Source: Gammaproteobacteria bacterium (lineage in GTDB: Bacteria; Pseudomonadota; Gammaproteobacteria; CAJXQU01). From it: a stretch of 64,000 nt of DNA. The DNA lies in the NCBI GenBank assembly GCA_965238175.1, contig CBDEGZ010000003.1, positions 222,076 through 286,075 on the forward strand, read 5' to 3'. Positions 3,316 to 45,968 of this stretch are shown piece after piece. Below the pieces are notes generated by a model. That model made no database searches. It saw nothing but the letters and a program-made list of their open reading frames with translations, and was not told the origin of the DNA. The position numbers were made by a program, and so were the translations under genes. The number at the start of each line of letters is the position of its first letter. Within the stretch, counting starts at the first letter, position 1.

Positions 3316-5817
3316 ATGTATCGAAATTTCTTTAATCTACAAGAAAAACCTTTCAAACTAACGGCTTCACCGGAGGTATTCCACGACAATCAAGGAATCA
3401 CTCCTGCTTATAAGAAATTGATCAAAGCCATCCACTCCGAACAAAGATTGATTTTACTTTCAGGTCAAACGGGCACGGGTAAAACGTTGTGTGCAGAAAA
3501 ATTAAAGATCGATTTAAAAGGTGATCCCTATTTTGAATGTATTGCAATTCCTTTTACTTCCCTGCCACTTGACGAAATACTTGGTTACATTTGCAATAAT
3601 CTGAACCTTCATTTTGGTTTAGGCCAAGATATCGACAAGCTGGAAATTCTTGATCGTTTTCTCACACACGGACACTCTCCAATACGCTCAGTCATCATCT
3701 TAATCGACGAAGCACAAAATCTATCTCATACCATTTTGACTGGACTGGTCGAACTTGTAAAACTCGGTGTACGCTCAAAACGTAACATCCAAATTGTGGT
3801 GATGGCTCGCAATGAAACCGATCTGAATTTACATCACTCTCGCATGGCTGAATTTAATCAACATTTATCAGTAAAGTGTCAGTTAGAACCTCTCACTTTC
3901 GAAGAAACCGACTCCTATATTAAATATCATCTTGATATGGCTGGCGCTACAGACAACGGTTTTTTCACCAAGGAAGCCACCGCAAAAGTTTTTGAACTGA
4001 CTCAGGGTCGAGCACGAGCCATTAATGTTCTTTGTGATCACATCCTTAATACCGCCGCTCACGAAAAAGCAACCATCATTACGCCCCAACATGTATTTCA
4101 GTCTCACAACCAACAAAAGTTTGATGACACAATTGAAATGGATAGTTCACTTATTTCAGATGCTATTAAGGAATATGTATACGAAGAAAATCAAGTCTTA
4201 CAAAAAGAGTCGTATATCTCCACAAAACCAGAGATCTCAAATGAGCCTGATACAAAAGATCACTCTTTTTCTGAAATTGAACTTGAAGATACCGTTGAAC
4301 CTTTGATCACAAAGCTAAATACACTAGAAAACACTCACCCAACCAAATCTGTATCTAATCAATCTCTACCATCTGTAGAAGATGAAACAATAGAATTTGG
4401 AAGTACTATTATTCATACAAATAATGAACAACTGAAATCGAACACACGTAGTAAATTCAACATACCATTGTGGGGATTAATATCACTGCTTTTAATCGCA
4501 GGACTACTCTATCAAGTAAATCAACATAAGATTTTACCTTATTTAGAAAGCAGACAAATGGACCATGAAACTCTGCCACTAACAGTAGAACCTGTCATCC
4601 AACTTGCAGAAAAAATTGATCTGCCCGATGAAATTAATCTTCAAACGGAAATTGACACCCCAATAATCGACGAAAAGACCTCAAGAACCACTTATCCTCC
4701 AGAACAAAATTTCCCTGAATCTAATCGCACGATTAAAGAAAATACACTCAGCGAAAATCAAACTCTAACTGAAATTGTGCAAAAAGACCTAATGCCTGCG
4801 ACAATAATTATTGAATCGTCTGAAGAAAAAAATTCAGTTACCGAGATCGAGTTTTTATTAAAAAAAGCTAAAGTTCAAATAGCCAGTTTAAAACTTACAG
4901 TACCAAAAGATGATAATGCCTACGCAAGCTATAAGTCGATTTTACAAAAGGATCCTGAGAATGAACAAGCCAATCAAGGTATTGAAGATCTCAAACAAAT
5001 GTTCATTGAATGGGCAAAAAACAACGTCAAAAAAAACCAATTTGATCGCGCTCGCCATTATTATCGAAAAGCATTGATCGTCGATCCACAAGATCAAGAA
5101 ACACTACAAGCACTCTCCGAGCTTGAGAACAAAATCGGGGATACAGATAACATTGAATTTAAAGCTGGACTGTTAGGTCTCGCAGAAAAAGCCAACTTAG
5201 AAGAGATACAAATGCTTCTGAACAAAGGTGCGTTTCCAGAAGTACAAGATCAAAAAGGTAATACGCCACTAATGCTGGCTACCGAACGTGGTCATGTCGA
5301 AGTGATCGAAACATTATTAAACAATGGAGCTAATCCCAACATCAAAAACAACTCCGGTGACACTGCACTAATGAATGCGGTGTGGAATGCACACGCTGAA
5401 ATTGTTGATCTTTTGATCAATAAACAAGCAAATATTGATACCGCAAACAAACGTGGATGGACGGCTTTAATGTATGCTGCAGTACAGGGCCATATAGAAA
5501 TACTAGAACGGTTGACTCTTATGCGAGCGAATTTAGAATCAGAAACTGATGATCAAAAAACTGCACTTGCCATCGCTGCCTACAACGGACAATATGAAAT
5601 TGTCAAAGCACTATTAAAAAGTGGTGCACAAATAGATACACAAGATATATCTGGCTGGACACCTTTAATGTCTGCGGCCTGGAATGGTTATAAACCGATT
5701 GTGATTATGCTTTTAGAACATGGCGCAGATAAATCTATCGCCACCCCTGAAGGTGACAATGCTTTTGAGTTAGCCTCGGAACAGAGCCACTACTCCATTA
5801 TGACGTTACTAAAATAG
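3316..5817 (+). CDS. ExeA/GspA-like P-loop ATPase (GQTGTGKT, DEAQ box) with TM segment and C-terminal TPR + ankyrin repeat region
   Basis: N-terminus has Walker A 'GQTGTGKT' and 'LIDEAQNL', typical of ExeA/MSHA-type secretion ATPases (PEP-CTERM-locus ATPase-like). A TM helix lies near residues 380-400 (PLWGLISLLLIAGLLY). TPR-like repeats come next, then 6-7 ankyrin repeats (GNTPLMLATERGHVEVIETLLNNGANPN...). Confidence 0.8.
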   Translation: MYRNFFNLQEKPFKLTASPEVFHDNQGITPAYKKLIKAIHSEQRLILLSGQTGTGKTLCAEKLKIDLKGDPYFECIAIPFTSLPLDEILGYICNNLNLHFGLGQDIDKLEILDRFLTHGHSPIRSVIILIDEAQNLSHTILTGLVELVKLGVRSKRNIQIVVMARNETDLNLHHSRMAEFNQHLSVKCQLEPLTFEETDSYIKYHLDMAGATDNGFFTKEATAKVFELTQGRARAINVLCDHILNTAAHEKATIITPQHVFQSHNQQKFDDTIEMDSSLISDAIKEYVYEENQVLQKESYISTKPEISNEPDTKDHSFSEIELEDTVEPLITKLNTLENTHPTKSVSNQSLPSVEDETIEFGSTIIHTNNEQLKSNTRSKFNIPLWGLISLLLIAGLLYQVNQHKILPYLESRQMDHETLPLTVEPVIQLAEKIDLPDEINLQTEIDTPIIDEKTSRTTYPPEQNFPESNRTIKENTLSENQTLTEIVQKDLMPATIIIESSEEKNSVTEIEFLLKKAKVQIASLKLTVPKDDNAYASYKSILQKDPENEQANQGIEDLKQMFIEWAKNNVKKNQFDRARHYYRKALIVDPQDQETLQALSELENKIGDTDNIEFKAGLLGLAEKANLEEIQMLLNKGAFPEVQDQKGNTPLMLATERGHVEVIETLLNNGANPNIKNNSGDTALMNAVWNAHAEIVDLLINKQANIDTANKRGWTALMYAAVQGHIEILERLTLMRANLESETDDQKTALAIAAYNGQYEIVKALLKSGAQIDTQDISGWTPLMSAAWNGYKPIVIMLLEHGADKSIATPEGDNAFELASEQSHYSIMTLLK

Positions 5818-15700: not shown

Positions 15701-16702
15701 ATGTCTAGACGTTTATTAATGTTTTTCACACTTTGTTTCGTCGTTCTTAATTTGTCGATTCCAACGAGTATTGCAAAAGGTCCACTTTCCGGGAAAATTT
15801 ATGCAATCGAGGTAGATGGCACGTTTGCTTATATGGGTGCTGGAGAAGAATTGGTTGTTTTTGATGTAACCAACCCCATCAAACCTATTCAGATCGCTAG
15901 TTTAGGGTTATTGGGTGATTCGGTTCAAGACATTCAAATAGTTGGAGATCTTGCTTTTATCGCGACGGGAACAGCAGGATTACATATTATCAATGTTGTA
16001 GATCCGTATCAGCCAGCGAAGGTCAGTAGGCTTGAAACACCAGGCCAGGCCAGTGGTGTCTATGTGGTTGATGGTTATGCTTATCTTGCAGCGGGTTCTG
16101 GTCTTATCATACTGGATGTAAGCGATCCTGAAAAACCGGCTCCTGTCGCATTTTCTGAGACGCTTGGTTGGGATAGTGATGTAATCGTTGCGAAAGGTTA
16201 TGCCTATGTCGCATCTGGTGAAGAAGGCGTTCGGGTTGTAGATGTTAGCAATCCACATGCGCCGACAATTATTGGTTCAATTGATACCCCTAACGATGCA
16301 AATGGCATTTTTGCAGAAAGTGATCTTCTCTTTATTGCTGCAGGATCCGGTGGGTTACAGATCGTAAATATCAGTGATCCATCTAATCCAAAAGAAGTCA
16401 GTGTTGAAGATACGGGTTATGCACGACAAGTCATAGTCAGTTCTGGTTATGCCTATATTGCTTCAGAAAGGAAGGGCTTATGCACAGTAGATATTTCCAG
16501 TCCGACAAGACCAGAGCTTATCAAACGTTACCCTGCTGAAGGTTCGGCTAATAGCATTGATGTAGAGGATGGTTACATTTTCACAGCAGATGGCATTGGT
16601 GGTCTACTGGTTATAAATGGTTTCATGAATCATTCGAGTATATCAGATAGTCAATATTCTCCCGCGCCTGATTCCGTGAGAAGTTTCACACCTAAGAAAT
16701 GA
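15701..16702 (+). CDS. Secreted LVIVD-repeat beta-propeller protein
   Basis: Signal peptide. ~8 repeats of the 'GYAYVA.G..GL.IVDVSDP..P' LVIVD-type motif. Confidence 0.8.
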   Translation: MSRRLLMFFTLCFVVLNLSIPTSIAKGPLSGKIYAIEVDGTFAYMGAGEELVVFDVTNPIKPIQIASLGLLGDSVQDIQIVGDLAFIATGTAGLHIINVVDPYQPAKVSRLETPGQASGVYVVDGYAYLAAGSGLIILDVSDPEKPAPVAFSETLGWDSDVIVAKGYAYVASGEEGVRVVDVSNPHAPTIIGSIDTPNDANGIFAESDLLFIAAGSGGLQIVNISDPSNPKEVSVEDTGYARQVIVSSGYAYIASERKGLCTVDISSPTRPELIKRYPAEGSANSIDVEDGYIFTADGIGGLLVINGFMNHSSISDSQYSPAPDSVRSFTPKK

Positions 16703-16758
16703 TTTCACTTATAAATAATAAACATACAACAATTAAAAAAAGTAGATGGGAAATTGAT

Positions 16759-19700
16759 ATGAGAAGGATGCTTGCGTCACCCCTAAGAAGACTGCAATTG
16801 AGTCTTAAACATAAACGACTTAATAACCTCATGATCATTATTTTTATGATGATGTTTGGTTTGTCTATCGTGAAAGCTGCTACGCCGCTTTCTGAGGCAG
16901 GTTACAGAGGTTTTTCCTATCCGACAGCGCTTAGCCAACCAACAGGTGAAAAGCCCGAGAGTAAATTGTGGTTCAACGATGGTTTTTGGTGGGGCATTCT
17001 TTGGAGCACTTCTGGCGGAGCGCATCATATACATAGACTGGATGAGAACACACAAGACTGGATAGATACTGGCGTATCAGTTGATGATCGTGATGACTCA
17101 AAGTCAGACACTCTGTGGGATGGAAACAATCAAAAACTCTATGTTGTCTCACACCGATTCATCAGTAATGCAGGGCAATCAGCGACTTCAGGTAACCGCG
17201 GTGAATTGTACCGTTATAGCTACAGTGCTGGATCAAATTCTTACAGCTTGGATAGTGGTTTCCCAGTTGAAGTTAATGCAGCAAGAACTGAGACATTAGT
17301 TATAGAAAAGGATTCGAATGATCGCCTATGGGTCACATATACTCGAGATCAGACTGTCTATCTAAACCATAGTGGTTCCAGCGATACTGATTGGGATCCT
17401 ACGAATAGACCATTTATTCTACCTACTGGAGATAATACGGTAGATATCGGTGCTGATGACAACTGCTCGATTGCAACTTTTAACAACAACATTGGTGTCA
17501 TGTGGAGCAACCAATCAGATGACAAAATGTATTTTTCTGCTCATCCAGATAGCGCTAGTCCAACTACAGGTTGGTCGAGTGGTGTTGTGGTATTCGAAGG
17601 TGCTGGAAACAGGTCAGCAGACGATCACATTAACTTGGCCTCTCTTGATGGTGATCCGGCCGGTGAAGTTTTTGCCGTTACTAAAACCTCGGAATCAAAT
17701 GCTCGAAATATGCTGTTAGTCTGTGACAGCGGTTGTACTTCAAGTAGTGATTGGACAGCATACACAGCTTATCAAGAGGGTGGCAGTGTGGGAAATCCCA
17801 CACGTCCAGCGGTTGTTATTGATACCAGTAATCGCCAGTTATATGTTTTCACAAGTGTGAGTGATAGTGGTCGAGATATATATTACAAAGTAACCGATCT
17901 GGATAATATCCAGTTTAATGCCTCAAGTTTAGGTAGCCCGCTTATAAAAGATTCCTCGAACTCCCCAAATAATGTTACGTCCACTAAGCAGAATTTGAAT
18001 AGTTCAACGGGATTGGCAGCTCTTTCTGCAACTGGCAGTCGATATTTACACAACCAATTTCCACTGAGCGCTAGCCCTAGTCCCGACATAACCGTAACGC
18101 CGATATCACGTAACTACGGAGACGTTGTAGTGAACGGTGTAGGTTCATTCAACTTTATAGTTAGTAACGATGGAACAACCACATTGAATGTGAGCAGCAC
18201 AAGCCTTCTTGGAAGTGATTCCGATCAGTTCAACATCGATAGTGGTAACGGTTCTTTTAGCCTGAACCAAGGGCAGAGTCAGACTGTGAGCTTGAGCTTT
18301 AACCCGACCACTGTTGGTAACAAGAGCGCAACTTTACGAATAGCGAGTAACGATCCGAACGAAGATCCCTTTGATGTAAGCCTAACCGGAAATGGTGTGA
18401 TAAGCGCTCCAGATATAACGGTCACTCCGAGCGCCAATGATTATGGAGACATTGAGGTTGGTAACACAGTTTCTTTTAACGTTGAGATCAGAAATGACGG
18501 CAGCGAAAACCTGAACGTATCGGCCCTGTCCTTGGCTGGCAGTAATCCGGGTGAATTTAGTATAGACAGCGGACAAAGTGGCAGCACTTTAGCTCCAGGT
18601 CAAAGCCAGGTAGCTGCTGTGAGTTTCAACCCTAGTTCCCTAGGGGATAAGAGCGCAATTTTAAGCATTCCTAGCAATGATCCAGATGAAAATCCGAGCA
18701 ATGTGGATTTGAGCGGCAGAGGTATATCGCCTGGAATGGGCGGCGGCACTCTAACACTTTCCCCTAGTGACGACGCACGTGTGAGCTTGGGATTTCCCAG
18801 AAGTAATTACGGCTCAGACACAGTAATAAGAATACGAGGAGCAGGCACAAGCTCTCATGAAAGTTACCTGAAATTTAACGTGGCCGGACTTACAGGTACA
18901 CCGACATCGGCCAAATTACGTCTTTTCGTAACCGATGGAAGTCCTGATGGTGGTGATGTCTACATAGTTGGCAACAGCTGGGATGAATCCACGATCACAG
19001 CGGGTAATGCACCAGCGATTAGTGGCAGCCCAATTGCTAGTGCGGGTTCAGTTATTAATGGAATCTGGATAGAGATCGATATAACTTCTGAGATTACAGG
19101 CAATGGAACTTATAGTTTTGGTATGCGGAGTAATAGCTCGAATAGTGCTCGTTACAGTTCAAAAGAAGGTGCTAATCCGCCAGAACTGGTGATCGAACAA
19201 TCCGGTACAAGTGGTTCTGTTACACCGACACTCAGTAAGAGTTTCAACCCAATAACCATCACAAGCGGAGGTATATCGACACTGACCTTGACGATCAATA
19301 ACAACGGAAATAGCGTTGCCCTGACAGGTTTAAGTGTCAGTGATAACTATCCTGCGGCGATCACAAATGCGGCTTCAGCGAATGCCAGTAGCACCTGTAG
19401 CGGTGGTACTCTGAATGCGGCAAACGGCGGTAGCAGTATTAGCTATACCGGAGGAAGCGTTGCGGCAGGGTCGAGTTGTACGATAAGTGTGAATGTGACC
19501 AGCAACACTGTAGGCCAACACCTTAATACTAGCGGCGTGGTCAGCAGTACTGAAGCACCGGACAGTGCAACAGCGAGTGCCACATTAACTGTGAATAGTG
19601 AAGTTGTAGCACCAACACTGAGCAAGAGTTTTAACCCAACCTCCATCACAAGCGGAGGTATATCGACACTGACCTTGACGATCAATAACAACGGAAATAG

Positions 19701-21789
19701 CGTTGCCCTGACAGGTTTAAGTGTCAGTGATAACTATCCTGCGGCGATCACAAATGCGGCTTCAGCGAATGCCAGTAGCACCTGTAGCGGTGGTACTCTG
19801 AATGCGGCAAACGGCGGTAGCAGTATTAGTTATACCGGAGGAAGCGTTGCGGCAGGGTCGAGTTGTACGATAAGTGTGAATGTGACCAGCAACACTGTAG
19901 GCCAACACCTTAATACTAGCGGCGTGGTTAGCAATGCAGAGGCACCGGATAGCACAACAGCGAGTGCAACTTTGGGTGTTACTTCATCAGGGGGTGGTGG
20001 TGGTGGCACTCTAACACTTTTCCCTAGTGACGACGCACGTGTGAGCTTGGGATTTTCCGGAAGTAACTACGGCTCAGACACAGTAGTAAGGGTTCGGGGA
20101 GCAGGTACAAGCTCCCATGAAAGTTACCTGAAATTTAACGTGGCTGGATTAACGAGCATACCTACATCGGCTAAATTACGTCTTTTCGTAACCGATGGAA
20201 GTCCTGATGGCGGTGGTGTATACGTCGTTGGCAGCGGCTGGGATGAATCGACTATCACAGGGAGTAATGCACCTGCAATTAGCGGTAGCCCAATTGCTAG
20301 TTCAGGTTCAGTTACGAATGGAACCTGGGTAGAGATAGATATAGCTTCGGCGATTACAGGCAACGGCACTTATAGTTTTGGTATACGGAGTAATAGCTCG
20401 AATAGTGCTCGTTACAGTTCCAAAGAAGGTACGAATCCACCAGAATTAGTAATTGAATCATCGGGAATTCCTACCCCAGACATAACCGTAACGCCGACAT
20501 CAAATAACTACGGAGATGTTACAGTCAATGGAATGGGTTCAATTAATTTTACGGTACGCAACGATGGAATCGCCACTTTGAATGTGAGTGGTACAAGTTT
20601 GATTGGAAGCGATCCTACAGAGTTCAACATCGACAGTGGTGGTTCATTCAGCCTGACTCAAGGACAAACTCAGGTGGTGAGCGTGAGTTTCAACCCAACG
20701 TCAATTGGTGGTAAGAGTGCAAGCTTACGAATAGCGAGTAACGATCCGAACGAAGATCCACTTGACGTAAGCCTAACTGGTAACGGTGTAGTTAGCGCTC
20801 CAGATATAACGGTCACTCCGAGCACTCACAGCTATGGCGACATTGTTGTAGGAAACTCGGACTCTCTTAACATAGTTATCCGTAATGATGGTAGCCAAAA
20901 CCTGATCGTATCTGCCGTGTCCTTGAGTGGAAGTAATCCGGGGGAATTCAGTATAGACAGCGGCGGTAATGGCGGCATTCTGACTCCTGGACAAAGTCAG
21001 ACGGTTACGGTGAGTTTCAATCCCAGTTCTCTAGGAACTAAGGCCGCAGTTTTAAGTATTCCTAGCGATGACCCGGATGAAAACCCGATCGATGTGGATT
21101 TGAGTGGCACAGGTGTTGATACTCCACTACCAGGTGGTAACGTGACATTCGAAGATATACAGGCTGGCGGTTCATCGAGTGCTACTGCTGTTTCAACTTC
21201 GGGTAATGTGACAGGTGTTAGTGGTGATTTGTATTTAGCGACTATCACCAGTAAATCCTTCAAGACGGTTACATCGGTTACTGGACTAGGTTTAAGTTGG
21301 AGTCTGGTCACGGAGCAATGTGCTGGACGTAACCAGACGGGTGTAACTGTTTGGCAAGCTCAGGGTAGTAGTCCTACCTCCAGCACAGTAACAGCAAATT
21401 TATCAGGAGCTCCAACTAATGCAACAATTACAGTGTCACGTTACTCCGGTGTGAGCCAAACAGATCCCATTGGAAACATTATTTCTGGTAACACTAATGG
21501 TGTGAGCGGAGCTTGTTCTGGAGGCACTGATTCTAATAGTTATAACTTTAATCTAGACACTACTACGCATGGGTCTGTCGTATTTGGAGCTATTGCCATG
21601 CGTAACAAAGCTCATACTGAAGGTTTTGGTTACACTGAACAGGTAGAGTTTGTACAGGGCAGTGGTGGCGGAAGTGCTTCGGTAGCTAACATGGATCAGA
21701 CTATTTTTAGCCCATCGACGGTTAGTGTTGATGGTATATTTAGTAGCAATGTTGACTACGCTGTTATTGGTATTGAGATCAAGCCATAG
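16759..21789 (+). CDS. Giant (~1.68k aa) secreted multi-domain surface protein with glycan-binding / adhesin-like modules
   Basis: Long signal-like N-terminus (…KHKRLNNLMIIIFMMMFGLSIVKA). N-terminal globular region. Two pairs of ~110-aa beta-sandwich repeats ('DITVTP..NYGDV.VG....F.V.NDG...L.VS' type). Two ~150-aa 'TLTL.PSDDARVS...SNYGSD...R.RGAGTSSHESYLKFNV' modules. Two identical ~130-aa 'conserved repeat/DUF11-like' modules. A poly-Gly linker. The start could also be the ORF-track ATG at 16699; 16759 is chosen because it precedes the basic/hydrophobic signal region. Confidence 0.8.
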   Translation: MRRMLASPLRRLQLSLKHKRLNNLMIIIFMMMFGLSIVKAATPLSEAGYRGFSYPTALSQPTGEKPESKLWFNDGFWWGILWSTSGGAHHIHRLDENTQDWIDTGVSVDDRDDSKSDTLWDGNNQKLYVVSHRFISNAGQSATSGNRGELYRYSYSAGSNSYSLDSGFPVEVNAARTETLVIEKDSNDRLWVTYTRDQTVYLNHSGSSDTDWDPTNRPFILPTGDNTVDIGADDNCSIATFNNNIGVMWSNQSDDKMYFSAHPDSASPTTGWSSGVVVFEGAGNRSADDHINLASLDGDPAGEVFAVTKTSESNARNMLLVCDSGCTSSSDWTAYTAYQEGGSVGNPTRPAVVIDTSNRQLYVFTSVSDSGRDIYYKVTDLDNIQFNASSLGSPLIKDSSNSPNNVTSTKQNLNSSTGLAALSATGSRYLHNQFPLSASPSPDITVTPISRNYGDVVVNGVGSFNFIVSNDGTTTLNVSSTSLLGSDSDQFNIDSGNGSFSLNQGQSQTVSLSFNPTTVGNKSATLRIASNDPNEDPFDVSLTGNGVISAPDITVTPSANDYGDIEVGNTVSFNVEIRNDGSENLNVSALSLAGSNPGEFSIDSGQSGSTLAPGQSQVAAVSFNPSSLGDKSAILSIPSNDPDENPSNVDLSGRGISPGMGGGTLTLSPSDDARVSLGFPRSNYGSDTVIRIRGAGTSSHESYLKFNVAGLTGTPTSAKLRLFVTDGSPDGGDVYIVGNSWDESTITAGNAPAISGSPIASAGSVINGIWIEIDITSEITGNGTYSFGMRSNSSNSARYSSKEGANPPELVIEQSGTSGSVTPTLSKSFNPITITSGGISTLTLTINNNGNSVALTGLSVSDNYPAAITNAASANASSTCSGGTLNAANGGSSISYTGGSVAAGSSCTISVNVTSNTVGQHLNTSGVVSSTEAPDSATASATLTVNSEVVAPTLSKSFNPTSITSGGISTLTLTINNNGNSVALTGLSVSDNYPAAITNAASANASSTCSGGTLNAANGGSSISYTGGSVAAGSSCTISVNVTSNTVGQHLNTSGVVSNAEAPDSTTASATLGVTSSGGGGGGTLTLFPSDDARVSLGFSGSNYGSDTVVRVRGAGTSSHESYLKFNVAGLTSIPTSAKLRLFVTDGSPDGGGVYVVGSGWDESTITGSNAPAISGSPIASSGSVTNGTWVEIDIASAITGNGTYSFGIRSNSSNSARYSSKEGTNPPELVIESSGIPTPDITVTPTSNNYGDVTVNGMGSINFTVRNDGIATLNVSGTSLIGSDPTEFNIDSGGSFSLTQGQTQVVSVSFNPTSIGGKSASLRIASNDPNEDPLDVSLTGNGVVSAPDITVTPSTHSYGDIVVGNSDSLNIVIRNDGSQNLIVSAVSLSGSNPGEFSIDSGGNGGILTPGQSQTVTVSFNPSSLGTKAAVLSIPSDDPDENPIDVDLSGTGVDTPLPGGNVTFEDIQAGGSSSATAVSTSGNVTGVSGDLYLATITSKSFKTVTSVTGLGLSWSLVTEQCAGRNQTGVTVWQAQGSSPTSSTVTANLSGAPTNATITVSRYSGVSQTDPIGNIISGNTNGVSGACSGGTDSNSYNFNLDTTTHGSVVFGAIAMRNKAHTEGFGYTEQVEFVQGSGGGSASVANMDQTIFSPSTVSVDGIFSSNVDYAVIGIEIKP
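19223..19985 (+). repeat. Intragenic near-perfect tandem duplication (~390 bp x 2) inside the giant gene
   Basis: Nucleotides ~19223-19612 and ~19613-19985 are almost identical base-for-base (e.g. 'cacaagcggaggtatatcgacactgaccttgacgatcaataacaacggaaatagcgttgccctgacagg...'). The encoded modules are 'PTLSKSFNP.TITSGGISTLTLTINNNGNSVALTGLSVSDNYPAAITNA...'. Confidence 0.9.
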
Positions 21790-21810
21790 TCGAAAATTAA
21801 ATATATAAGG

Positions 21811-22305
21811 GTGCCAGTTATTATTTGTGGCACCCTTTATTATTTGTGGCACCCTTTATTATTTGTGGCACCCTTTATTATTTGTGGCACCCTTTATTAT
21901 TTGTGGCACCCTTTATTATTTGTGGCACCCTTTATTATTTGTGGCACCCTTTATTATTTGTGGCACCCTTTATTATTTGTGGCACCCTTTATTATTTGTG
22001 GCACCCTTTATTATTTGTGGCACCCTTTATTATTTGTGGCACCCTTTATTATTTGTGGCACCCTTTATTATTTGTGGCACCCTTTATTATTTGTGGCACC
22101 CTTTATTATTTGTGGCACCCTTTATTATTTGTGGCACCCTTTATTATTTGTGGCACCCTTTATTATTTGTGGCACCCTTTATTATTTGTGGCACCCTTTA
22201 TTATTTGTGGCACCCTTTATTATTTGTGGCACCCTTTATTATTTGTGGCACCCTTTATTATTTGTGGCACCCTTTATTATTTGTGGCACCCTTTATTATT
22301 TGTGG
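21811..22305. repeat. Perfect tandem array: 19-bp unit GTGGCACCCTTTATTATTT x 25, plus one degenerate leading copy
   Basis: Directly visible; the period of 19 is confirmed by the 3-nt shift per 60-nt line. It starts 22 bp after the giant-gene stop and ends inside the last codons of the convergent gene at 22277. No spacers, so it is not a CRISPR array. Confidence 0.95.
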
Positions 22306-23569
22306 AATGGGTCCAACCAGTCCACCCAATGTTTTTACCGAACCGGGTTTTCTTACGATTCCAAAAGGAGGTAGCGTAGTAACAATCAACTAATGGCAAC
22401 TGCCAGGTATCATCACCAGTAGCTGAAAAATTAGCTTCATCATTTAACCAACTGTAAGCTCTTAATAAGGCCTTATCTTGCCAATTGAATGGATCATATC
22501 CTTGTCTCTGAAGAATGATTGCTTGAACGAGTGCACCCTGTAGTGCTTCGTAAACGTAGTTTTCCTTAGGTGGCGGCCATTGAAATCCACCACCTCGGCG
22601 TTGATCATCAGGTAAGACTCCATCTATGGAGTGTCCTTCTTTTTTACAGCCTTTTGGATTGATTCCGACAGGCTTATTTGCGTGGCACTGCCAGGCAAAA
22701 CCATATCTATAAACGAAATTTGAATATGCGTCGCGATCACCAAGCCATCCTTTAAAGACAGTGGCCGCACGGTGGATTTCTGCACGATCATTAAGATATA
22801 CCGCAATTGCTAAACGGCTTGCGCCGGCGTGAGTGCCCCAATTATTAGGTCGCTCTTCATGGGTGGAAATTAAAGTTTTCCTGCTAAGAGTGTCCGGTTG
22901 CGAATAGCGAACATTGCTTAGCCAAGCCTTAAAAAGCACTTCTTGTTTTGGGGAAAGTGTGATGAGATCAGCTGCAATAACATAAGCAGCAAGTTCTCGG
23001 CCCAATGCTAACGTAGAGCCACCTTTTTCTGTTCCCATAATCATCATGATTTGTCCCATTATTTCCTGATGAAAACTCTTTAATTCAATATCACTACATT
23101 GCAGAGATGAAGGCTCTTGGGTACAACGCACATAAACAAGGGCTTTCCCTAAGATATAGACATTGTGTTTTTGTTTATTATTACTTAAGTTCGGCTTGCC
23201 AACTGGTTTAATTGCCTGTTTTTTTAGTTGCTCCCAGGCTTCTCCTTGCATATCTAGATCAGCAAGTTCTTCAGCACTAATCCAAATACTTGTTTTTTCG
23301 GCTGGCACTGGATTTTCGTTTTCAGAAGAATTTTGTTCTAACCCAATAAGTTTACGATCCGATCCGGCATCAGCCAGAGTAACCCCTTCAGAACGAGTAA
23401 CGTCTTTTTTGCTCAGGCGAAGATCTTGTGATGAGAGTTTTTGATCTGTTGAGTACTGATCAGGTTTCTCATAATCGATCATTGTTAGACCAGTAATGGT
23501 TAACAGACTGAGCGCAGTGAGAATTGTACAAAATACGAAAAACCGTCTCATCCTTATTCTTATCTCCAT
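22277..23569 (-). CDS. Secreted alginate-lyase-family (PL5/PF05426-like) polysaccharide lyase
   Basis: Signal peptide (MRRFFVFCTILTALSLLTITG). 'NNWGTHAGASRLAIAVYLNDRAEIHRAATVF' resembles the '[28 protein letters not shown]' catalytic region of alginate lyases. 'YVYEALQGALVQAI' is similar to a conserved helix. This is a by-eye match only. Confidence 0.5.
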   Translation of the reverse strand: MEIRIRMRRFFVFCTILTALSLLTITGLTMIDYEKPDQYSTDQKLSSQDLRLSKKDVTRSEGVTLADAGSDRKLIGLEQNSSENENPVPAEKTSIWISAEELADLDMQGEAWEQLKKQAIKPVGKPNLSNNKQKHNVYILGKALVYVRCTQEPSSLQCSDIELKSFHQEIMGQIMMIMGTEKGGSTLALGRELAAYVIAADLITLSPKQEVLFKAWLSNVRYSQPDTLSRKTLISTHEERPNNWGTHAGASRLAIAVYLNDRAEIHRAATVFKGWLGDRDAYSNFVYRYGFAWQCHANKPVGINPKGCKKEGHSIDGVLPDDQRRGGGFQWPPPKENYVYEALQGALVQAIILQRQGYDPFNWQDKALLRAYSWLNDEANFSATGDDTWQLPLVDCYYATSFWNRKKTRFGKNIGWTGWTHSTNNKGCHK

Positions 23570-33078: not shown

Positions 33079-35883
33079 ATGAACGATACAGCGAAAAAAA
33101 GGGAAGAAGAAATTGAGAATGGACAGGGAAGTCGCAAGAAGAGGTATTCTTGGGCATCTAAAATTAAAGCTGTTAAACAAGTTCTAGGCGGTCGGCCCAT
33201 GGATGAAGTTGCAAGTGAATATGGAGTGCGTCCTAAAACGATAAGCAAGTGGTGTCGAAACTGGAAGAAAGAATTTGCAAAGAACGTAGTAGATGATCAT
33301 AGCAAAGTAGATAGCCCTAAAGATTCGCTTGTAACTCGTGCTGTTGAGCATTGGAATGATTCAGCTGATGATTTAATTGTTGATGCAATAGGTAAAAACT
33401 TAAATGCAACACATAGGATTGATAATTCACCTCCAAGACATTCGACAGAAATAACGAACACATCATCACATCATGAAAGAAGAACCATAAAAAATAGTGA
33501 GGATATCTACAAGCAGCAACTAAATGTTCAACAATTCTCAAAAAATCAATCAAGTAGGAGGATAATTGAACCACAAACCGCATTCTCAGGCCAGGCATCC
33601 CTTAGAGAAGTCTTGGGAATACTACAGGAATCTAAGTGGTTTATTAGCCGGATCGTTCTACTTACGGCACTTCTGGGAATATTACATCTTTGGTTTGTAC
33701 CGCCTATTTACCGAGCAGATGCAATACTGGAAATTGAAGAAAATGTTCGTGGCACAGGTGCCGTCCTTGATAATTCTAACGATCTGAATGAGGAAGGTGC
33801 CATTGTTAGTGAGGAAGTCGAGATCCTTAAATCCAGAGCAGTTGTTCGTGAAGTTGTTAATAATCTTAAATTAGATTTCATTATGAGTCCAAAATACTTC
33901 CCGGTTATCGGGGAGGCAATCGCGCGAAAAAATCCTATATTAACAAACTCAAAGGAAGGTTTATCTGAAGTACCTTTATCTGCGGCATGGATTGTTAAGC
34001 AGATTCCATCAATTGAAGAGCCTCTAAAATCCACATATGCATATATTCAAACCTTAAAAACAAAATTATATGATCAACTCAAGTCTTCAAAATATGCGTG
34101 GGGAAATGAACAAATTATTGTAGAAGAAATGATCGTGCCTGATAGTTTATTGGGTGTGAAATATACCGTTATAGCTACGGATAACAAACAATATCAATTG
34201 CTTGATCAAGATGGACAAAAATTAGGAATGGGCAAAATTGGAGAGCCACTTGAGATCTCATTGCCGGATGGAAAGTTTGTCTTGCTTCTTTCAGACCTTA
34301 CTGCCACGACAGGTAAGCATTTTGAAATAACGAGAGTTCCGTTGATTGTCGCGATTGGTCAACAACAGAAAAATGTGATCGTGCGAGAGAAAGCGGGTGT
34401 TGTTAACTCTGGTCTTTTGGGCGTAACTCTAGAAGGAGCGGACAGGTTTAGCATTGTATCCATCATTAACGAGTTAATGGATACTTATATTCGCCAAAAT
34501 GTTGATCGTAAAGCAGCTAATGCTGAAAAGAAATTAAGCTTCATGGAGGAGCAGCTTGCTGTTCTCGAAGAAAGCATGAGTACAGCAGAGCAAGGATTGA
34601 ACAACTATCGACAGCAAGAAGGTTCCGTTGATCTGGCGACAGAGTCGGAAGTAATTCTAAAGCGAATTGTTGAAGTAGAATCGGAAATTTCAAGTCTTAC
34701 CAGGAATCGTCTTGAGCTTATCCAAAAATTTAAACCCAGACATCCTAAGATTCGGGCATTAGATGGACAGGTAGGTACATTAAAAAGAGAGCTGGAAAAA
34801 TTGAACGGAAAGGTAAAGAAATTACCAGATACACAACAGCAAGTACTCAGTATGACAAGAGACGTCGATGTTCAAGCTAAACTTTACTCTTTTCTTTATA
34901 ATAAAATTCAAGAACTTAAAGTTATTACTGCCGGTTCTATTGGAAACTTAAGAGTTGTTGATTATGCAACACTGCCGGTTGAGCCTGTCAAACCGCAAGG
35001 AAAAGTGATAATCGTAGCGTATCTATTGCTGGGTTTAATTCTAGGGGTTGGCGCCAGCTTTGTTAGAAGGGGAATGCATGCAGGGGTACATGATCCAGAG
35101 GTTATTGAGAAACAACTGGGCCTTGAGGTTCTTGCGGAGCTACCTTTGAGCCCACAACAGGCTAAACTTAAGAAAAGCAGCATTTTTGGTAAAAGTTCTA
35201 AAAAAGGTATTCTTGCGATTGTTAATCCAGAAGATCCAACCATTGAGGGTCTGCGTAATCTTAGAACCTCACTTTACTTCTCTCAGTTTGAGTCGAAAAA
35301 TAATCTGATAGTCATTACTGGGCCTGCACCAGAAGTAGGCAAATCATTTGTTTCTATAAATTATGCTGCTGTTTTAGCAAGTTCGGGTAGTCGTGTTTTA
35401 GTGATTGATGCAGATTTTCGCAGGGGCACTATCAGTGAATATGTCGGGATAGAACGCCATAGTGGGCTATCTGATTTGATCCTTGGGAAAATGAGTGCTG
35501 AGGAAGTGATTCAAGAAACAGATGTTGAAGGTCTGGACGTCATCACATCAGGCAAAATGCCTTCGAATCCTTCAGAGCTGCTACTACACGAAAACTTCGC
35601 AAGAGTATTAGAAAACATTTCGGCAAACTATAATTTTGTGATCATTGATACACCCCCAATCTTGGCATTTTCTGATGCCACGGTAATCGCACGACTTGCT
35701 GGCTCAGCTTTGCTTGTGGTCAAGTCTGGAATGCATTCGGTACGCCAGTTGGAATACACCATCAAGCAATTAAATAAAGCTGACGTCAAGTTAGAAGGTG
35801 TTGTTTTCAATGGACTGGATATAACAAATACAGCTTATGGGTACGGGCACAGTTATGGTTATTCGTACTCTTACAAAAATTAA
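33079..35883 (+). CDS. Polysaccharide co-polymerase / BY-kinase (Wzc/EpsG-like tyrosine autokinase) with unusual N-terminal transposase-like HTH extension
   Basis: TM1, periplasmic coiled-coil Wzz-like region, TM2, then Walker A 'GPAPEVGKSFVSINYAA', Walker B 'VIIDTPP', and a Tyr-rich tail 'YGYGHSYGYSYSYKN'. The first ~110 residues ('KRYSWASKIKAVKQVLGGRPMDEVASEYGVRPKTISKWCRNWKK') look like an IS3-OrfA-type HTH. The true start may be internal, possibly non-ATG. Confidence 0.85.
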   Translation: MNDTAKKREEEIENGQGSRKKRYSWASKIKAVKQVLGGRPMDEVASEYGVRPKTISKWCRNWKKEFAKNVVDDHSKVDSPKDSLVTRAVEHWNDSADDLIVDAIGKNLNATHRIDNSPPRHSTEITNTSSHHERRTIKNSEDIYKQQLNVQQFSKNQSSRRIIEPQTAFSGQASLREVLGILQESKWFISRIVLLTALLGILHLWFVPPIYRADAILEIEENVRGTGAVLDNSNDLNEEGAIVSEEVEILKSRAVVREVVNNLKLDFIMSPKYFPVIGEAIARKNPILTNSKEGLSEVPLSAAWIVKQIPSIEEPLKSTYAYIQTLKTKLYDQLKSSKYAWGNEQIIVEEMIVPDSLLGVKYTVIATDNKQYQLLDQDGQKLGMGKIGEPLEISLPDGKFVLLLSDLTATTGKHFEITRVPLIVAIGQQQKNVIVREKAGVVNSGLLGVTLEGADRFSIVSIINELMDTYIRQNVDRKAANAEKKLSFMEEQLAVLEESMSTAEQGLNNYRQQEGSVDLATESEVILKRIVEVESEISSLTRNRLELIQKFKPRHPKIRALDGQVGTLKRELEKLNGKVKKLPDTQQQVLSMTRDVDVQAKLYSFLYNKIQELKVITAGSIGNLRVVDYATLPVEPVKPQGKVIIVAYLLLGLILGVGASFVRRGMHAGVHDPEVIEKQLGLEVLAELPLSPQQAKLKKSSIFGKSSKKGILAIVNPEDPTIEGLRNLRTSLYFSQFESKNNLIVITGPAPEVGKSFVSINYAAVLASSGSRVLVIDADFRRGTISEYVGIERHSGLSDLILGKMSAEEVIQETDVEGLDVITSGKMPSNPSELLLHENFARVLENISANYNFVIIDTPPILAFSDATVIARLAGSALLVVKSGMHSVRQLEYTIKQLNKADVKLEGVVFNGLDITNTAYGYGHSYGYSYSYKN

Positions 35884-40806: not shown

Positions 40807-41538
40807 CTATACTTCCCTGTCTTGATGAAATTTGTAGATTTGTTCCTTTACGTGTGAGACCACCAACTCTAAAGGTATTGTTGTATCAACAACGACTGAA
40901 TTTTTTGCGACACTTTGCAATTCTAAATATTGCTTACGTTTTATTTCAAGAAACTCCGGGTTGAATTCACCTTTTCGGGCAAAAACCACTTCTCCAGGTG
41001 CATCAAGAATAATTAGCAGGTCAGGTTCTCGTAGTGTATATTTCAGCACAAATCCATGTATCCTGCGTTTGAGCGAAATATTTTTATCACCAACTTGCAT
41101 ATCTTGATGATAATAATCATAAATAAAATGTCTGTCGAACAACACAATGTAGCCACGTTGAACATAAACCCAGGAAACGAGTTGTCTGTACCATTCTTCT
41201 AGTATCCTGTTTCCTAGACCAACACTTTTACGAATTTTTCTGATCAATTTTTTAGCTAAATTTCTTGTTTCAGCTTTCCGTACTAACTCATCAAGCGCTT
41301 TATCTTCATGATCAAGTTCATTTTGAACTTTTTGGGAATGAGGTATCACATGTCCTGTAATGCCTTTGTTCTTCTTTCGAGTTTCCCACCAACGTGTGGT
41401 TGGTAACATTATGTTACTGGCTTCAACATTCATACCCATATAAATGTATTTAAGTGGTAGATTAAAAGATTCTTCAAGTTCTTTTGAAACAGTGGTTTTG
41501 CCAACACCATCAGGCCCAATTAATGTAACTGTAAACAC
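40807..41538 (-). CDS. Small P-loop NTPase/kinase-like protein (Walker A 'GPDGVGKTT')
   Basis: Walker A at residues 8-16 and a Walker-B-like 'LLIILDAPGEV'. Size and layout are those of nucleoside/sugar/APS-kinase-like P-loop kinases. The specific family was not identified. Confidence 0.45.
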   Translation of the reverse strand: MFTVTLIGPDGVGKTTVSKELEESFNLPLKYIYMGMNVEASNIMLPTTRWWETRKKNKGITGHVIPHSQKVQNELDHEDKALDELVRKAETRNLAKKLIRKIRKSVGLGNRILEEWYRQLVSWVYVQRGYIVLFDRHFIYDYYHQDMQVGDKNISLKRRIHGFVLKYTLREPDLLIILDAPGEVVFARKGEFNPEFLEIKRKQYLELQSVAKNSVVVDTTIPLELVVSHVKEQIYKFHQDREV

Positions 41539-41728
41539 CGGAACTTCACCTTTTTATTAATTCTTAGTTATCTATCTATAGTAGTGGTTTTTGGAATTAG
41601 AATGGCTAATTTTTGATAATTCAAAAATTATTTAGCAGATATGAGCACACTTTAGGAACCAATTTGTGGCTAACTCTAATTCATATTATTATTTATAAAT
41701 TTAATTTTATCAAAATTTTTAGACTTTA

Positions 41729-41768
41729 AAACAATAACTAAAGTTAAAAAACAATAACTAAAGTTAAC
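41729..41768. repeat. 20-bp tandem direct duplication (aaacaataactaaagttaaa x2) in the promoter region of the minus-strand EPS operon
   Basis: Directly visible. It lies ~190 bp upstream of the P-loop kinase start and downstream of ppa. Confidence 0.6.
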
Positions 41769-42656: not shown

Positions 42657-44669
42657 ATGAGTTTCAATGCATTGCTACCAATGCTGCTAGGTGTGATCGG
42701 TCTTGGTGGTGCGTTCTATCTTTATAAAGCTGTCAAAGAGTTTCCCGGAGGAGAAGGGAAAATTGCTGGAATAGCTGAACAGATCCATAGTGGCGCAATG
42801 GTTTTTATGCGTCGCGAATATACAGTGCTAGTTATTTTTTGTGCGTTCGTTTTAACATTAATACTTTTTTCTGATCTTGGTTGGAAAACGGCACTCGCAT
42901 TTTTGATCGGAGCACTTACCTCAGCCACCGCTGGCTATATCGGTATGTACACCGCGACTCAGGCCAATGTTCGTACGGCGGTTGCTGCTCGAGATGAAGG
43001 TGCTTCAAGTGCTTTAACGATTGCTTTTTTCGGTGGCTCAATTATGGGATTAACCGTCGCCTCTATGGGCTTGCTCGGGCTAGGATTTTTGTATCTTATC
43101 TTTGGTGGCGATCCTGAAACTGCACATGTTATCCATGGCTTCGGTATGGGCGCGTCAAGTGTTGCATTATTCTCTCGTGTGGGTGGTGGTATCTTCACTA
43201 AAAGTGCCGATGTTGGTGCTGATTTAGTCGGTAAGATTGAAGCGGGCATTCCAGAAGATGATCCAAGAAATCCGGGCGTGATTGCAGATAACGTTGGAGA
43301 TAATGTGGGTGATGTTGCCGGCATGGGATCAGATATTTTCGAATCATACTGTGGTTCGATGATTGCGACACTTGCACTTGCTTCAACCATGTCAGCAAGT
43401 TCCCTGGCTCAACTCAGTGCAGAACAATCTGAATTAATGTTCTTGCCGCTGGCACTTGCGTCACTAGGCTTGCTTTGCTCAATGGGTGGAATCTTTCTGG
43501 TTAGACATTTTGCTAGCAAATCACCAGAAGTTGCATTACGCATAGGCACCATCGGTGCTTCGATCATTTTCATTGTTGCGGCACTTCTTTTGATCGCAGC
43601 TTACGGAATTAGCGTTAAAGTCTGGGGCTCTGTATTAGTCGGCGCATTAGGTGGAATTATTATTGGTCTGGTGACGGAGTACTACACTTCTGCTGCACCG
43701 ATAAGACGAATCGCCAAGTCCGGCGAAACCGGTCCGGCAACCGTTATGATCACAGGTCTTGCGGTCGGCATGCAATCTGTCGTCGTTCCTGTTTTGACCA
43801 TATGCGGAATCATTTTGATCTCAAGTAACCTGGCTGGATTATACGGCGTAGCAATTGCCGCAGTCGGCATGCTCGGAACGGTTGGGATTACCATGGCGAT
43901 TGATGCATACGGACCCGTTGCGGATAACGCAGGTGGTATCGCTGAAATGGGTGGCATGGGTGAAGACACTAGAGAGATCACTGATTCTCTTGATGAGTTG
44001 GGTAATACAACAGCAGCTATCGGTAAGGGTTTTGCGATTGGTGCAGCTGCGCTTGCCGCACTCGCACTGATCAGTGCTTACATCGAAACGATTATTCATG
44101 GCAGGGCTGATTTCACCTTAGAGTTGAATAGTCCACAAGTCCTTGCGGGTATGTTCCTTGGGGGAATTTTTCCATTTGTTGTCAGCGCAATAACAATGAC
44201 CGCAGTGGGAGACGCAGCCTTCGATATGATCAAAGAGATCCGGCGTCAGTTTCATGAAATTCCTGGTCTATTAGAAGGTGAAGCTGAACCCGACACTGAA
44301 AGATGTGTAGACATTGCAACCACCGCAGCACTGAAAAGAATGGTGTTGCCAGGTGTTTTAGCAGTAGGTTCACCCGTTGTTGTCGGTTTCCTACTAGGCC
44401 CAGAAGCGCTAGGCGGAATGCTCGGTGGTGCCTTGATCTGTTGTGTCTTGATGGCGCTGATGATGGCCAATGCAGGTGGTGCTTGGGATAACGCCAAGAA
44501 ATATGTAGAAAAAGGGAATCTTGGTGGAAAAGGAACCGATACTCACACTGCGGTAGTTGTTGGTGACACAGTCGGCGATCCATTCAAAGATACATCTGGT
44601 CCAGCGATGAATATCTTGATCAATGTTATGGCGATTGTTTCTTTAGTGATTGCGCCGTTGTTGGTTTAA
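42657..44669 (+). CDS. hppA: Membrane-bound proton/sodium-translocating pyrophosphatase (K+-dependent type signature)
   Basis: 670 aa, ~15 TM helices. Motifs 'GGG(I)[16 protein letters not shown]', 'DNVGDNVGD', '[15 protein letters not shown]'. It has '[10 protein letters not shown]' (Ala, not Lys), the signature of K+-dependent M-PPases. Confidence 0.9.
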
Positions 44670-44700
44670 TAAAGAAACGTTATTGAACGTTTATAATTAG

Positions 44701-44739
44701 CCTATCCAACTTTATATTAAGTTTAAGTTGGATAGGTTT
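44701..44739 (+). terminator. Rho-independent terminator of hppA (12-bp stem, 12-nt loop, TTT tail)
   Basis: cctatccaactt-tatattaagttt-aagttggatagg followed by ttt. It begins 32 bp after the hppA stop. The IS481 copy is inserted immediately at its U-tract. Confidence 0.6.
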
Positions 44740-44742
44740 ACT

Positions 44743-45968
44743 TGTAGAAATTCAGATTTGATCTGACAGTTACCCAATTATCAGTAACCGACTGTCAGGT
44801 TAAGTTTAATTCACAAACTTTTCCTTCCAGATAGCTTGTCCGTCGATGAGTGTTTCCATCGGCGTCCTCCCGCAGCACATTTTGCCTTGGTGAGTTCGTT
44901 GAGTATTGTATTTGAGCAACCATTCGTCAAGGTCGAGTTGCAGTTCATCAATCGATTGGTAAATTTTCTTACGCAAAGCGACTTGATAAAACTCATTGAG
45001 GATCGTCTTATGGAATCGCTCACAAATACCATTCGTCTGAGGTGATTTGACCTTGGTTTTGGTGTGTTCGATATTGTTCAACGCCATATAAAGCTGATAA
45101 TCATGCTGGTCAGCTCGCCCACAATACTCCGTCCCTCTATCTGTCAAAATGCGCAACATAGGCAAACGTTGTTCTTCGTAGAATGGGAGGACGCGGTCAT
45201 TGAGCATGTCAGCTGCCGTAATCGGTGTTTTAGTCGGGTACAGTTTCGCGTGAGCGACCTTGCTGTAAGTATCAACAAACGTTTGTTGATAAACCCGACC
45301 AATGCCTTTGAAAGTACCGACATAGTAAGTATCTTGCGAGCCAAGATAACCAGGGTGTGCCGTTTCTATCTCGCCACAAGCCTCATCGTCGTCTTTTTTG
45401 CGTTCCATCGCCGCGACTTGAGACTCAGTGAGGATCAAGCCTTCACCAGCTACCTTATCAGACAATGCCTTCAGGCGATCTTTAAAGCAAGCAAGACCAT
45501 GACGAAGCCAGATACAACGAACGCCACTGGGTGAGACAAATGTTCCCCGTTTGCGCAGCTCGTTACTGGTGCGCGTTTGACCATGTGCGGGCTCTTCCAG
45601 TGCATACTCGAGCACAACGGTTTCAATAGCCGGGTCGATTCTGTTTTTAAGATTTGGGGTACGCCGATTACGATCAAACAAGGCTTCTACACCGCCTTCA
45701 TCAGCCGCTTCTTTGTAGCGATAAAATATATCTCTGGACAAACCCATCATCTTGCAGGCTTTTGAGACATTGCCGAGTTCTTCAGCGAGATTGAGTAGAC
45801 CAACTTTATGTTTTATAACTTTGTCATTAGTATGAATCATGAGAGTTACCTCTTTGTGTTTTGATGTTTACGTTGCAGTTACATCAAAGCGGGTAACTCT
45901 CACTAAATCAAGCGTCGCTACGCTCCGCTTGATTTAGTGATGTGTCAGATTGGGTCTAAACTTCTACA
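44743..45968 (-). mobile_element. IS481-family insertion sequence, copy 1 (1226 bp) with 7-bp target-site duplication GTTTACT
   Basis: Identical to the copy at 62266-63491. Imperfect ~24-bp terminal inverted repeats: TGTAGAAaTTcAGAtttgATCTGA / TGTAGAAgTTtAGAcccaATCTGA. Flanking direct repeat gtttact (44736-44742 and 45969-45975). Confidence 0.85.
44806..45840 (-). CDS. IS481-family DDE transposase (344 aa)
   Basis: N-terminal HTH ('LSRDIFYRYK') and rve-type integrase core ('...RILTDRGTEYCG...', 'NGICERFHKTILNEF'). It differs from the second copy by one residue (I/T). Confidence 0.9.
   Translation of the reverse strand: MIHTNDKVIKHKVGLLNLAEELGNVSKACKMMGLSRDIFYRYKEAADEGGVEALFDRNRRTPNLKNRIDPAIETVVLEYALEEPAHGQTRTSNELRKRGTFVSPSGVRCIWLRHGLACFKDRLKALSDKVAGEGLILTESQVAAMERKKDDDEACGEIETAHPGYLGSQDTYYVGTFKGIGRVYQQTFVDTYSKVAHAKLYPTKTPITAADMLNDRVLPFYEEQRLPMLRILTDRGTEYCGRADQHDYQLYMALNNIEHTKTKVKSPQTNGICERFHKTILNEFYQVALRKKIYQSIDELQLDLDEWLLKYNTQRTHQGKMCCGRTPMETLIDGQAIWKEKFVN

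Follow-up and report, generated by a model that had tools for sequence, protein, structure and literature searches.

A 19-bp minisatellite that probably grew from half of a terminator-like hairpin between two convergent exopolysaccharide-cluster genes

Introduction

How does a 19-bp sequence come to stand 25 times, head to tail and without a mismatch, between the ends of two convergent genes, and does its reiteration matter to either of them? The question is raised by a stretch of 64,000 nucleotides (the window) that represents a chromosomal exopolysaccharide (EPS) cluster of a gammaproteobacterium with ~40% GC. The cluster encodes a sugar transferase, a GT2 glycosyltransferase, a flippase, an LVIVD-repeat protein, a giant CBM96 protein, a lyase-family protein, an NHL/phytase-like protein, an APH-type kinase, a sulfotransferase, an O-antigen-ligase-like protein, Wza and Wzc; the window also holds the housekeeping genes glnA, bioA, a pyrophosphatase gene and addAB-like genes. 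By its GlnA the organism can be placed no more closely than in the gammaproteobacteria: the nearest relatives share ~91% identity, and named matches at 80-83% include MAGs of Thiohalomonadales, Methylophaga, Arenicellales and Thiotrichales.

Our analysis makes it probable that the array is a lineage-specific minisatellite of the VNTR type, grown by slippage from the short spacer between two convergent genes of this cluster. As a bacterial minisatellite it belongs to an ordinary class, and its origin is unusually easy to read.

The array and its flanking genes

The features from which the argument starts are the following.

16699-21789, plus strand: gene of a giant secreted or surface protein, 1696 aa, with two CBM96, two DUF7933 and four Ig-like domains; stop codon TAG at 21787-21789
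21818-22305, no strand assigned: tandem array of 25.7 copies with a period of 19 and 100% identity; counted in another register, 25 full units at 21827-22301
22277-23569, minus strand: alginate-lyase-family gene, 430 aa, convergent with the giant gene (Pfam PF05426 Alginate_lyase, E = 3e-8)
22277-22305, minus strand: array-proximal 29 nt coding for the lyase tail, with the genuine C-terminal (S)TNNKGCHK and the stop
21811-22393, plus strand: three overlapping ORFs (21811-22374, 21825-22379 and 21827-22393; 187, 184 and 188 aa), stop-free through the array

In the sequence read from 21500 to 22700, a pattern search located 25 mismatch-free head-to-tail copies of GTGGCACCCTTTATTATTT at 21827-22301, with GTGG at 22302-22305 directly after the last full unit; shuffled sequence gave zero matches to the same 25-copy pattern. 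TRF delimited the array at 21818-22305 with 100% matches and 0 indels. Both results agree with an earlier sequence-only reading of this DNA, which had described a perfect 19-bp tandem array with 25 exact copies between a giant gene and a convergent lyase-like gene, a setting that ORF and domain evidence supports as well. The start given there for the array, 21811, indeed lies 22 nt past the giant-gene stop. This gene ends 17 nt before the stem of the hairpin described below (18 nt before the array by the TRF start), and its C-terminus, NVDYAVIGIEIKP followed by the stop, is conserved among orthologous loci.

The three long ORFs across the array had been suspected to be artefacts, and rightly so, as they exist only because the unit is free of stops in every plus-strand frame. 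On the minus strand, TAA closes every frame within 14 codons. We therefore reject a coding repeat. A search with the array-encoded repeat peptide among 5.8 billion proteins found no match, which is a weak negative, since even the array of the source genome has no entry in that collection.

At its other end the array overlaps the lyase-like gene, as had been noted: the last eight sense codons, the stop and 2 nt lie inside it (22277-22305), and each unit holds the last six codons of this gene together with the stop. The encoded end, STNNKGCHK-stop, aligns with the orthologue tails SAKNxxxCGKK-stop and SARNTITCIK-stop, and the homologue ends WTHSAKNAGACGKK, WTHSAKNTAACGKK and WTHSARNTITCIK, each closed by a stop, align residue for residue with WTHSTNNKG-CHK-stop. 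Given this homology, the array-encoded lyase tail is ancestral and the unit contains real coding sequence. The make-up of the unit, real lyase-tail coding sequence plus half of a terminator-like hairpin, is what the first description missed.

A hairpin formed by a single left arm and the first unit

Three adjacent elements, none of them assigned to a strand, make up an inverted repeat at the left edge of the array.

21799-21816: left arm, single copy, composed of the A/T-rich AAATATAT and the GC-rich stem arm AAGGGTGCCA (21807-21816)
21817-21827: 11-nt loop GTTATTATTTG, formed with the first unit, which would contain the lyase stop in a one-unit allele
21828-21845: right arm in the first unit, composed of the stem arm TGGCACCCTT (21828-21837) and the T-rich TATTATTT; arm and tract are the reiterated part

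The stem arms AAGGGTGCCA and TGGCACCCTT pair perfectly over 10 bp, and the TGGCACCCTT arm is present in each repeat unit, so that every one of them is complementary to AAGGGTGCCA. A repeat finder extended the arms to 18 nt at 83% complementarity (AAATATATAAGGGTGCCA and TGGCACCCTTTATTATTT, 11 nt apart), including the A-rich and T-rich tracts, and the inverted repeat spans 18 of the 19 positions of the unit. The single left arm can pair with every unit, across loops of 11, 30, 49 nt and so on. AGGGTGCCA is found once within the 64-kb window.

Predicted folding of the hairpin RNA yields -20.3 kcal/mol on the plus strand (z = -4.7; 0 of 200 shuffles as good) and -17.4 kcal/mol in the lyase sense on the minus strand (z = -2.6). 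The stem is followed on its 3' side by a U-rich tract in both senses, UAUUAUUU in the plus and AUAUAUUUAAUUUU in the minus sense; a stable GC-rich stem-loop and such a tract on both strands are two marks of a bidirectional intrinsic terminator. The order of A-tract, stem, loop, stem and T-tract is that of a bidirectional terminator-like hairpin, of which the repeat unit is the right half, and suggests terminator activity. It resembles bidirectional Rho-independent terminators between convergent genes in its GC-rich 10-bp stem, its A-rich and T-rich flanks, its position directly after both stops and its folding on both strands. It differs from a canonical terminator in its loop, 11 nt instead of 3-8 nt, and from bidirectional terminators in having one arm in a single copy and the other, with its T-tract, in 25. 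A consensus terminator scan did not call the hairpin because the loop exceeds the 3-8 nt that the scan allows. Array RNA alone is no more structured than shuffles (four units, z = -0.5 and -1.95; whole plus strand, z = +0.46), and Rfam returned no match, either for the window at gathering thresholds or for the array at E <= 1. Four other convergent spacers in the window measure 70-136 nt, and two of the four fold as long-stem hairpins with loops of 12-19 nt.

The hairpin also clarifies what had been taken for a degenerate leading copy of the repeat. The leading stretch is present at 21808-21826, although as the opposite arm of the inverted repeat and not as a decayed direct copy: 13 of its 19 positions match the unit, nine of them being the shared TTATTATTT, and its GC-rich part gives the unit core when read on the opposite strand. 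The GTGCCAC that had been read in this copy is absent from it; the actual string is GTGCCAG, and the sole GTGCCAC of the window lies at 19577.

Orthologous loci and the proposed origin of the array

Comparison was made with six contigs that represent five distinct loci: L007 (with its duplicate L008), L009, L010, L011 and L012. All five keep the convergent giant/lyase pair, the end of the giant orthologue (DYAVIG[IV]EIKP-stop) facing the lyase stop across a spacer of ~34-101 nt, and none of the five carries a tandem array.

Two further observations were made on these loci. A Cys at 3-4 residues from the C-terminus is conserved among the lyase-family orthologues (C-G-K-K, C-I-K or C-H-K before the stop; window 22277-22300, L007 and L009-L012). 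In L009-L012, the UGUGGC of the Cys-Gly codons near the lyase end is complementary to GUCGCA or GUCACA just past the giant-gene stop (L009 3320-3440, L010 1570-1690, L011 3890-4000, L012 1800-1850). The predicted pairing would enclose the whole spacer in a long-range hairpin, with the topology of the window hairpin and loops of roughly 30-90 nt.

Collapsing the array of the window to one unit leaves the lyase protein intact (ending in WTHSTNNKGCHK and two stops), shortens the spacer to 31 nt and places the lyase stop in the hairpin loop. In the collapsed allele, the 13 bp TTATTATTTGTGG (in the lyase sense, CCACAAATAATAA) recur as a direct repeat with a period of 19 bp. At the homologous codons (K-N ... 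K-K-stop), the direct repeat of L009, L010 and L011 is AAAAAT(A), 6-7 bp long and with a period of 22 bp.

From these features a path to the present array can be proposed. An ancestral spacer of ~31 nt, as obtained from the collapse, would have carried one bidirectional terminator-like hairpin, consisting of an A-rich tract, AAGGGTGCCA, an 11-nt loop, TGGCACCCTT and a T-rich tract, with the right arm inside the last lyase codons and the lyase stop in the loop. Slipped-strand mispairing during replication on the 13-bp repeat, whose length and 19-bp period offer enough microhomology to begin expansion, probably started the amplification. Out-of-register recombination or further slippage within the growing array would then have raised the 19-bp segment to 25 copies. 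Each unit of the present array comprises a stem arm and its T-tract, together with the final six codons of the lyase gene and their stop. Bacterial minisatellites are thought to arise and vary by just these processes, replication slippage and unequal recombination. The locus would thus be a clean example of the birth of a minisatellite, from a 13-bp repeat with a 19-bp period at a place where the last codons of a gene overlap a terminator arm, by an amplification that spared both flanking genes.

Age and authenticity of the array

The perfect identity had been read as a sign of active expansion and contraction. By itself, identity only bounds the age of an array: over 475 bp, and at 1e-9 to 1e-10 substitutions per site, it implies an array younger than ~2e6 to 2e7 generations. 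That identity would last no longer and that no relative carries the array both suggest that it is young. From the side of the relatives the bound appears loose, as the nearest orthologues are only 61-69% identical; this is the range of the best lyase-family homologues apart from one entry with 100% identity. In the population, the array is probably polymorphic in length.

It might be objected that the length of the array, or even its expansion beyond one or two units, was produced by the assembly, the true allele being much shorter or heterogeneous. Perfect short-unit repeats are classic trouble spots for assemblers, and the array turned up in no independent assembly among reference genomes, JGI metagenomes and 5.8 billion proteins. 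Several points speak against this objection. The identical lyase protein is on record only once, from a single contig of 3,332,875 bp, which suggests a closed genome and hence a long-read assembly, with reads that would cross the 494-bp array many times over. With short reads, graph assemblers are more likely to collapse a loop of this sort than to inflate it to 25 copies. The boundaries are clean as well, with an intact hairpin on the left and, on the right, an intact reading frame that ends in a homologous protein tail. We therefore consider an artefact unlikely.

Consequences for the two genes

The copy number of the array cannot alter either flanking protein, because the lyase gene stops at the TAA of the first unit it meets and the giant gene ends before the array. 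The two transcripts would be affected differently. A plus-strand transcript would meet a complete hairpin and U-tract right where the array begins. The lyase transcript would have to cross all 25 units before reaching the sole complementary arm, and therefore would gain ~456 nt of 3' UTR and have its stop moved away from the hairpin. As a default assumption, we take the array to be selectively near-neutral.

The array would matter more only if its copy number tuned termination or mRNA fate at the convergent pair. Reiterated half-terminators might modulate termination and read-through, convergent interference or the stability of the lyase mRNA, by way of a longer 3' UTR, of 25 alternative arms offered to one complementary arm, or of the uncoupling of the lyase stop from the hairpin. 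The outcome would be heritable but reversible variation in the expression of an EPS-modifying gene pair; the array would set the length of the 3' UTR and the stability of the lyase mRNA, as well as the degree of read-through and collision between the convergent EPS genes. This proposal draws on the ability of each unit to pair with the single left arm, with a U-rich tract after each, and on the position of the stop in the loop of a one-unit allele, where a terminating ribosome would mask the stem, an overlap that the array removes. The genes concerned also have surface and polysaccharide functions, a class that is often phase-variable. However, the orthologues of five lineages do without an array, the first unit already completes the plus-strand terminator, which should make transcription of later units from that side rare, and the array RNA is not more structured than its shuffles. 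Such a tunable 3' module seems to us rather improbable, and its selected form, a contingency locus that acts through termination instead of a promoter or reading frame, is a shade more doubtful again.

In this context, the comparison with phase-variable simple-sequence contingency loci is instructive. The array shares with them a perfect repeat, a unit length that is not a multiple of three and a place beside surface and polysaccharide genes. Unlike theirs, its tract lies past the effective end of both reading frames and outside any promoter, and slippage cannot switch either protein. Classical phase variation is ruled out by this position, since the lyase stops in the first unit whatever the copy number.

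The practical value of the minisatellite is mostly that annotators are warned off three phantom ORFs of 184-188 aa. If copy number varies as expected, the array is also a ready-made hypervariable marker for tracking strains of this uncultured-type gammaproteobacterium.

Locus specificity and comparison with known systems

Is the repeat confined to this locus? In the other 63.5 kb of the 64-kb window there is no further copy of the cores GGGTGCC/GGCACCC and AGGGTGCCA/TGGCACCCT. Outside it, the exact 19-mer was hit three times in 596 Gb of reference genomes, each time singly and in unrelated MAGs, where chance alone predicts 4.3 hits, and JGI metagenomes gave three singletons; viral contigs contained none, and blastn found none in plasmids. 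The possibility that the 19-mer belongs to a genome-wide repeat family, raised with the first description, thus yielded nothing in the window and at most chance-level singletons in the genome, metagenome and viral collections.

The array accordingly shows what characterizes a minisatellite: head-to-tail units in the range of ~10-100 bp, high identity, and restriction to one locus as far as the window and the public collections extend. The first description of the array as a genuine, locus-specific and perfect repeat of the VNTR or minisatellite kind holds. Like the VNTR loci used in MLVA typing, it is largely intergenic and built of units of tens of bp. It differs from the typical case in that the origin of its unit, half a terminator and the last codons of a gene, is unusually clear, and in that it is known from one assembly. 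A CRISPR array is ruled out, as the units are contiguous, with no unique spacers between them.

The near-palindrome formed by the unit and the leading stretch had also been taken as a hint of a reiterated protein-binding site, and an iteron-like, centromere-like or nucleoid-organising array of such sites would be one way to account for 25 identical direct repeats with a unit in the size range of iterons. The palindrome is better explained by the arms of the terminator-like hairpin, since the unit alone holds only GTG-N-CAC. The unit also consists in part of coding sequence, from the tail of the lyase gene. The contiguous 19-bp period corresponds to ~1.8 helical turns, so that successive sites would face different sides of the helix. 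Elsewhere in the 64 kb the motif is absent, the array has no similarity to any plasmid or viral contig, and neither a rep, par or regulator gene was found among the annotated neighbours of the array nor a gene for a transcription factor or other DNA-binding protein in the surrounding EPS cluster. Plasmid iterons and centromere-like arrays share with it multiple direct repeats of ~19 bp; they differ in that this array is chromosomal, lies in an EPS cluster devoid of rep and par, and has contiguous and identical copies where theirs are spaced and slightly degenerate. The absence of a cognate rep or par gene, the neighbourhood of EPS biosynthesis and export, and the lack of a plasmid match rule out an iteron or partition-site array in particular, and we regard a binding-site array of any kind as very improbable.

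Least credible of all is a small mobile or dispersed repeat of the SDR or REP type that was inserted and then tandemly reiterated: bacteria are known to carry repeats of ~20 bp, scattered and locally in tandem, which are mentioned as 'small dispersed repeats' in PMC2884548, but the core has no second copy in the window, no repeat family emerged from the reference genomes or metagenomes searched, and the homology of the unit with the ancestral end of the lyase gene points to an origin at the site itself.

Other features of the window

Internal repetition is also seen within the giant gene, where a 387-bp tandem duplication (19223-19967; 1.9 copies, 95% identical) doubles a DUF7933/DUF11-type module. 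The 1696-aa protein as a whole looks like a near-mirror, with two Ig-like domains, CBM96 and DUF7933 followed by DUF7933, CBM96 and two Ig-like domains. A perfect 20-bp repeat in two tandem copies, AAAACAATAACTAAAGTTAA, lies at 41728-41767 in the intergenic region that separates the end of a minus-strand ORF, at 41538, from the pyrophosphatase gene at 42657, and may be another incipient slippage site.

The ORF at 3316-5817 fuses an ATPase domain of the PEP-CTERM/XrtA-system type (residues 1-258) to C-terminal ankyrin repeats (~627-830). The mechanically called ORF of the Wzc-type tyrosine autokinase (33079-35883) is extended at its N-terminus by ~300 aa, which include a weak IS3-transposase-like match (residues 27-147, E = 2.5e-4); its true start may lie downstream, or the extension may be a fused transposase remnant. 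Finally, the 136-nt convergent spacer at 44670-44805, between the pyrophosphatase gene and the ORF at 44806-45840, holds two adjacent strong hairpins with stems of 14 and 17 bp (-45 kcal/mol), which may be a terminator pair or a REP-like element.
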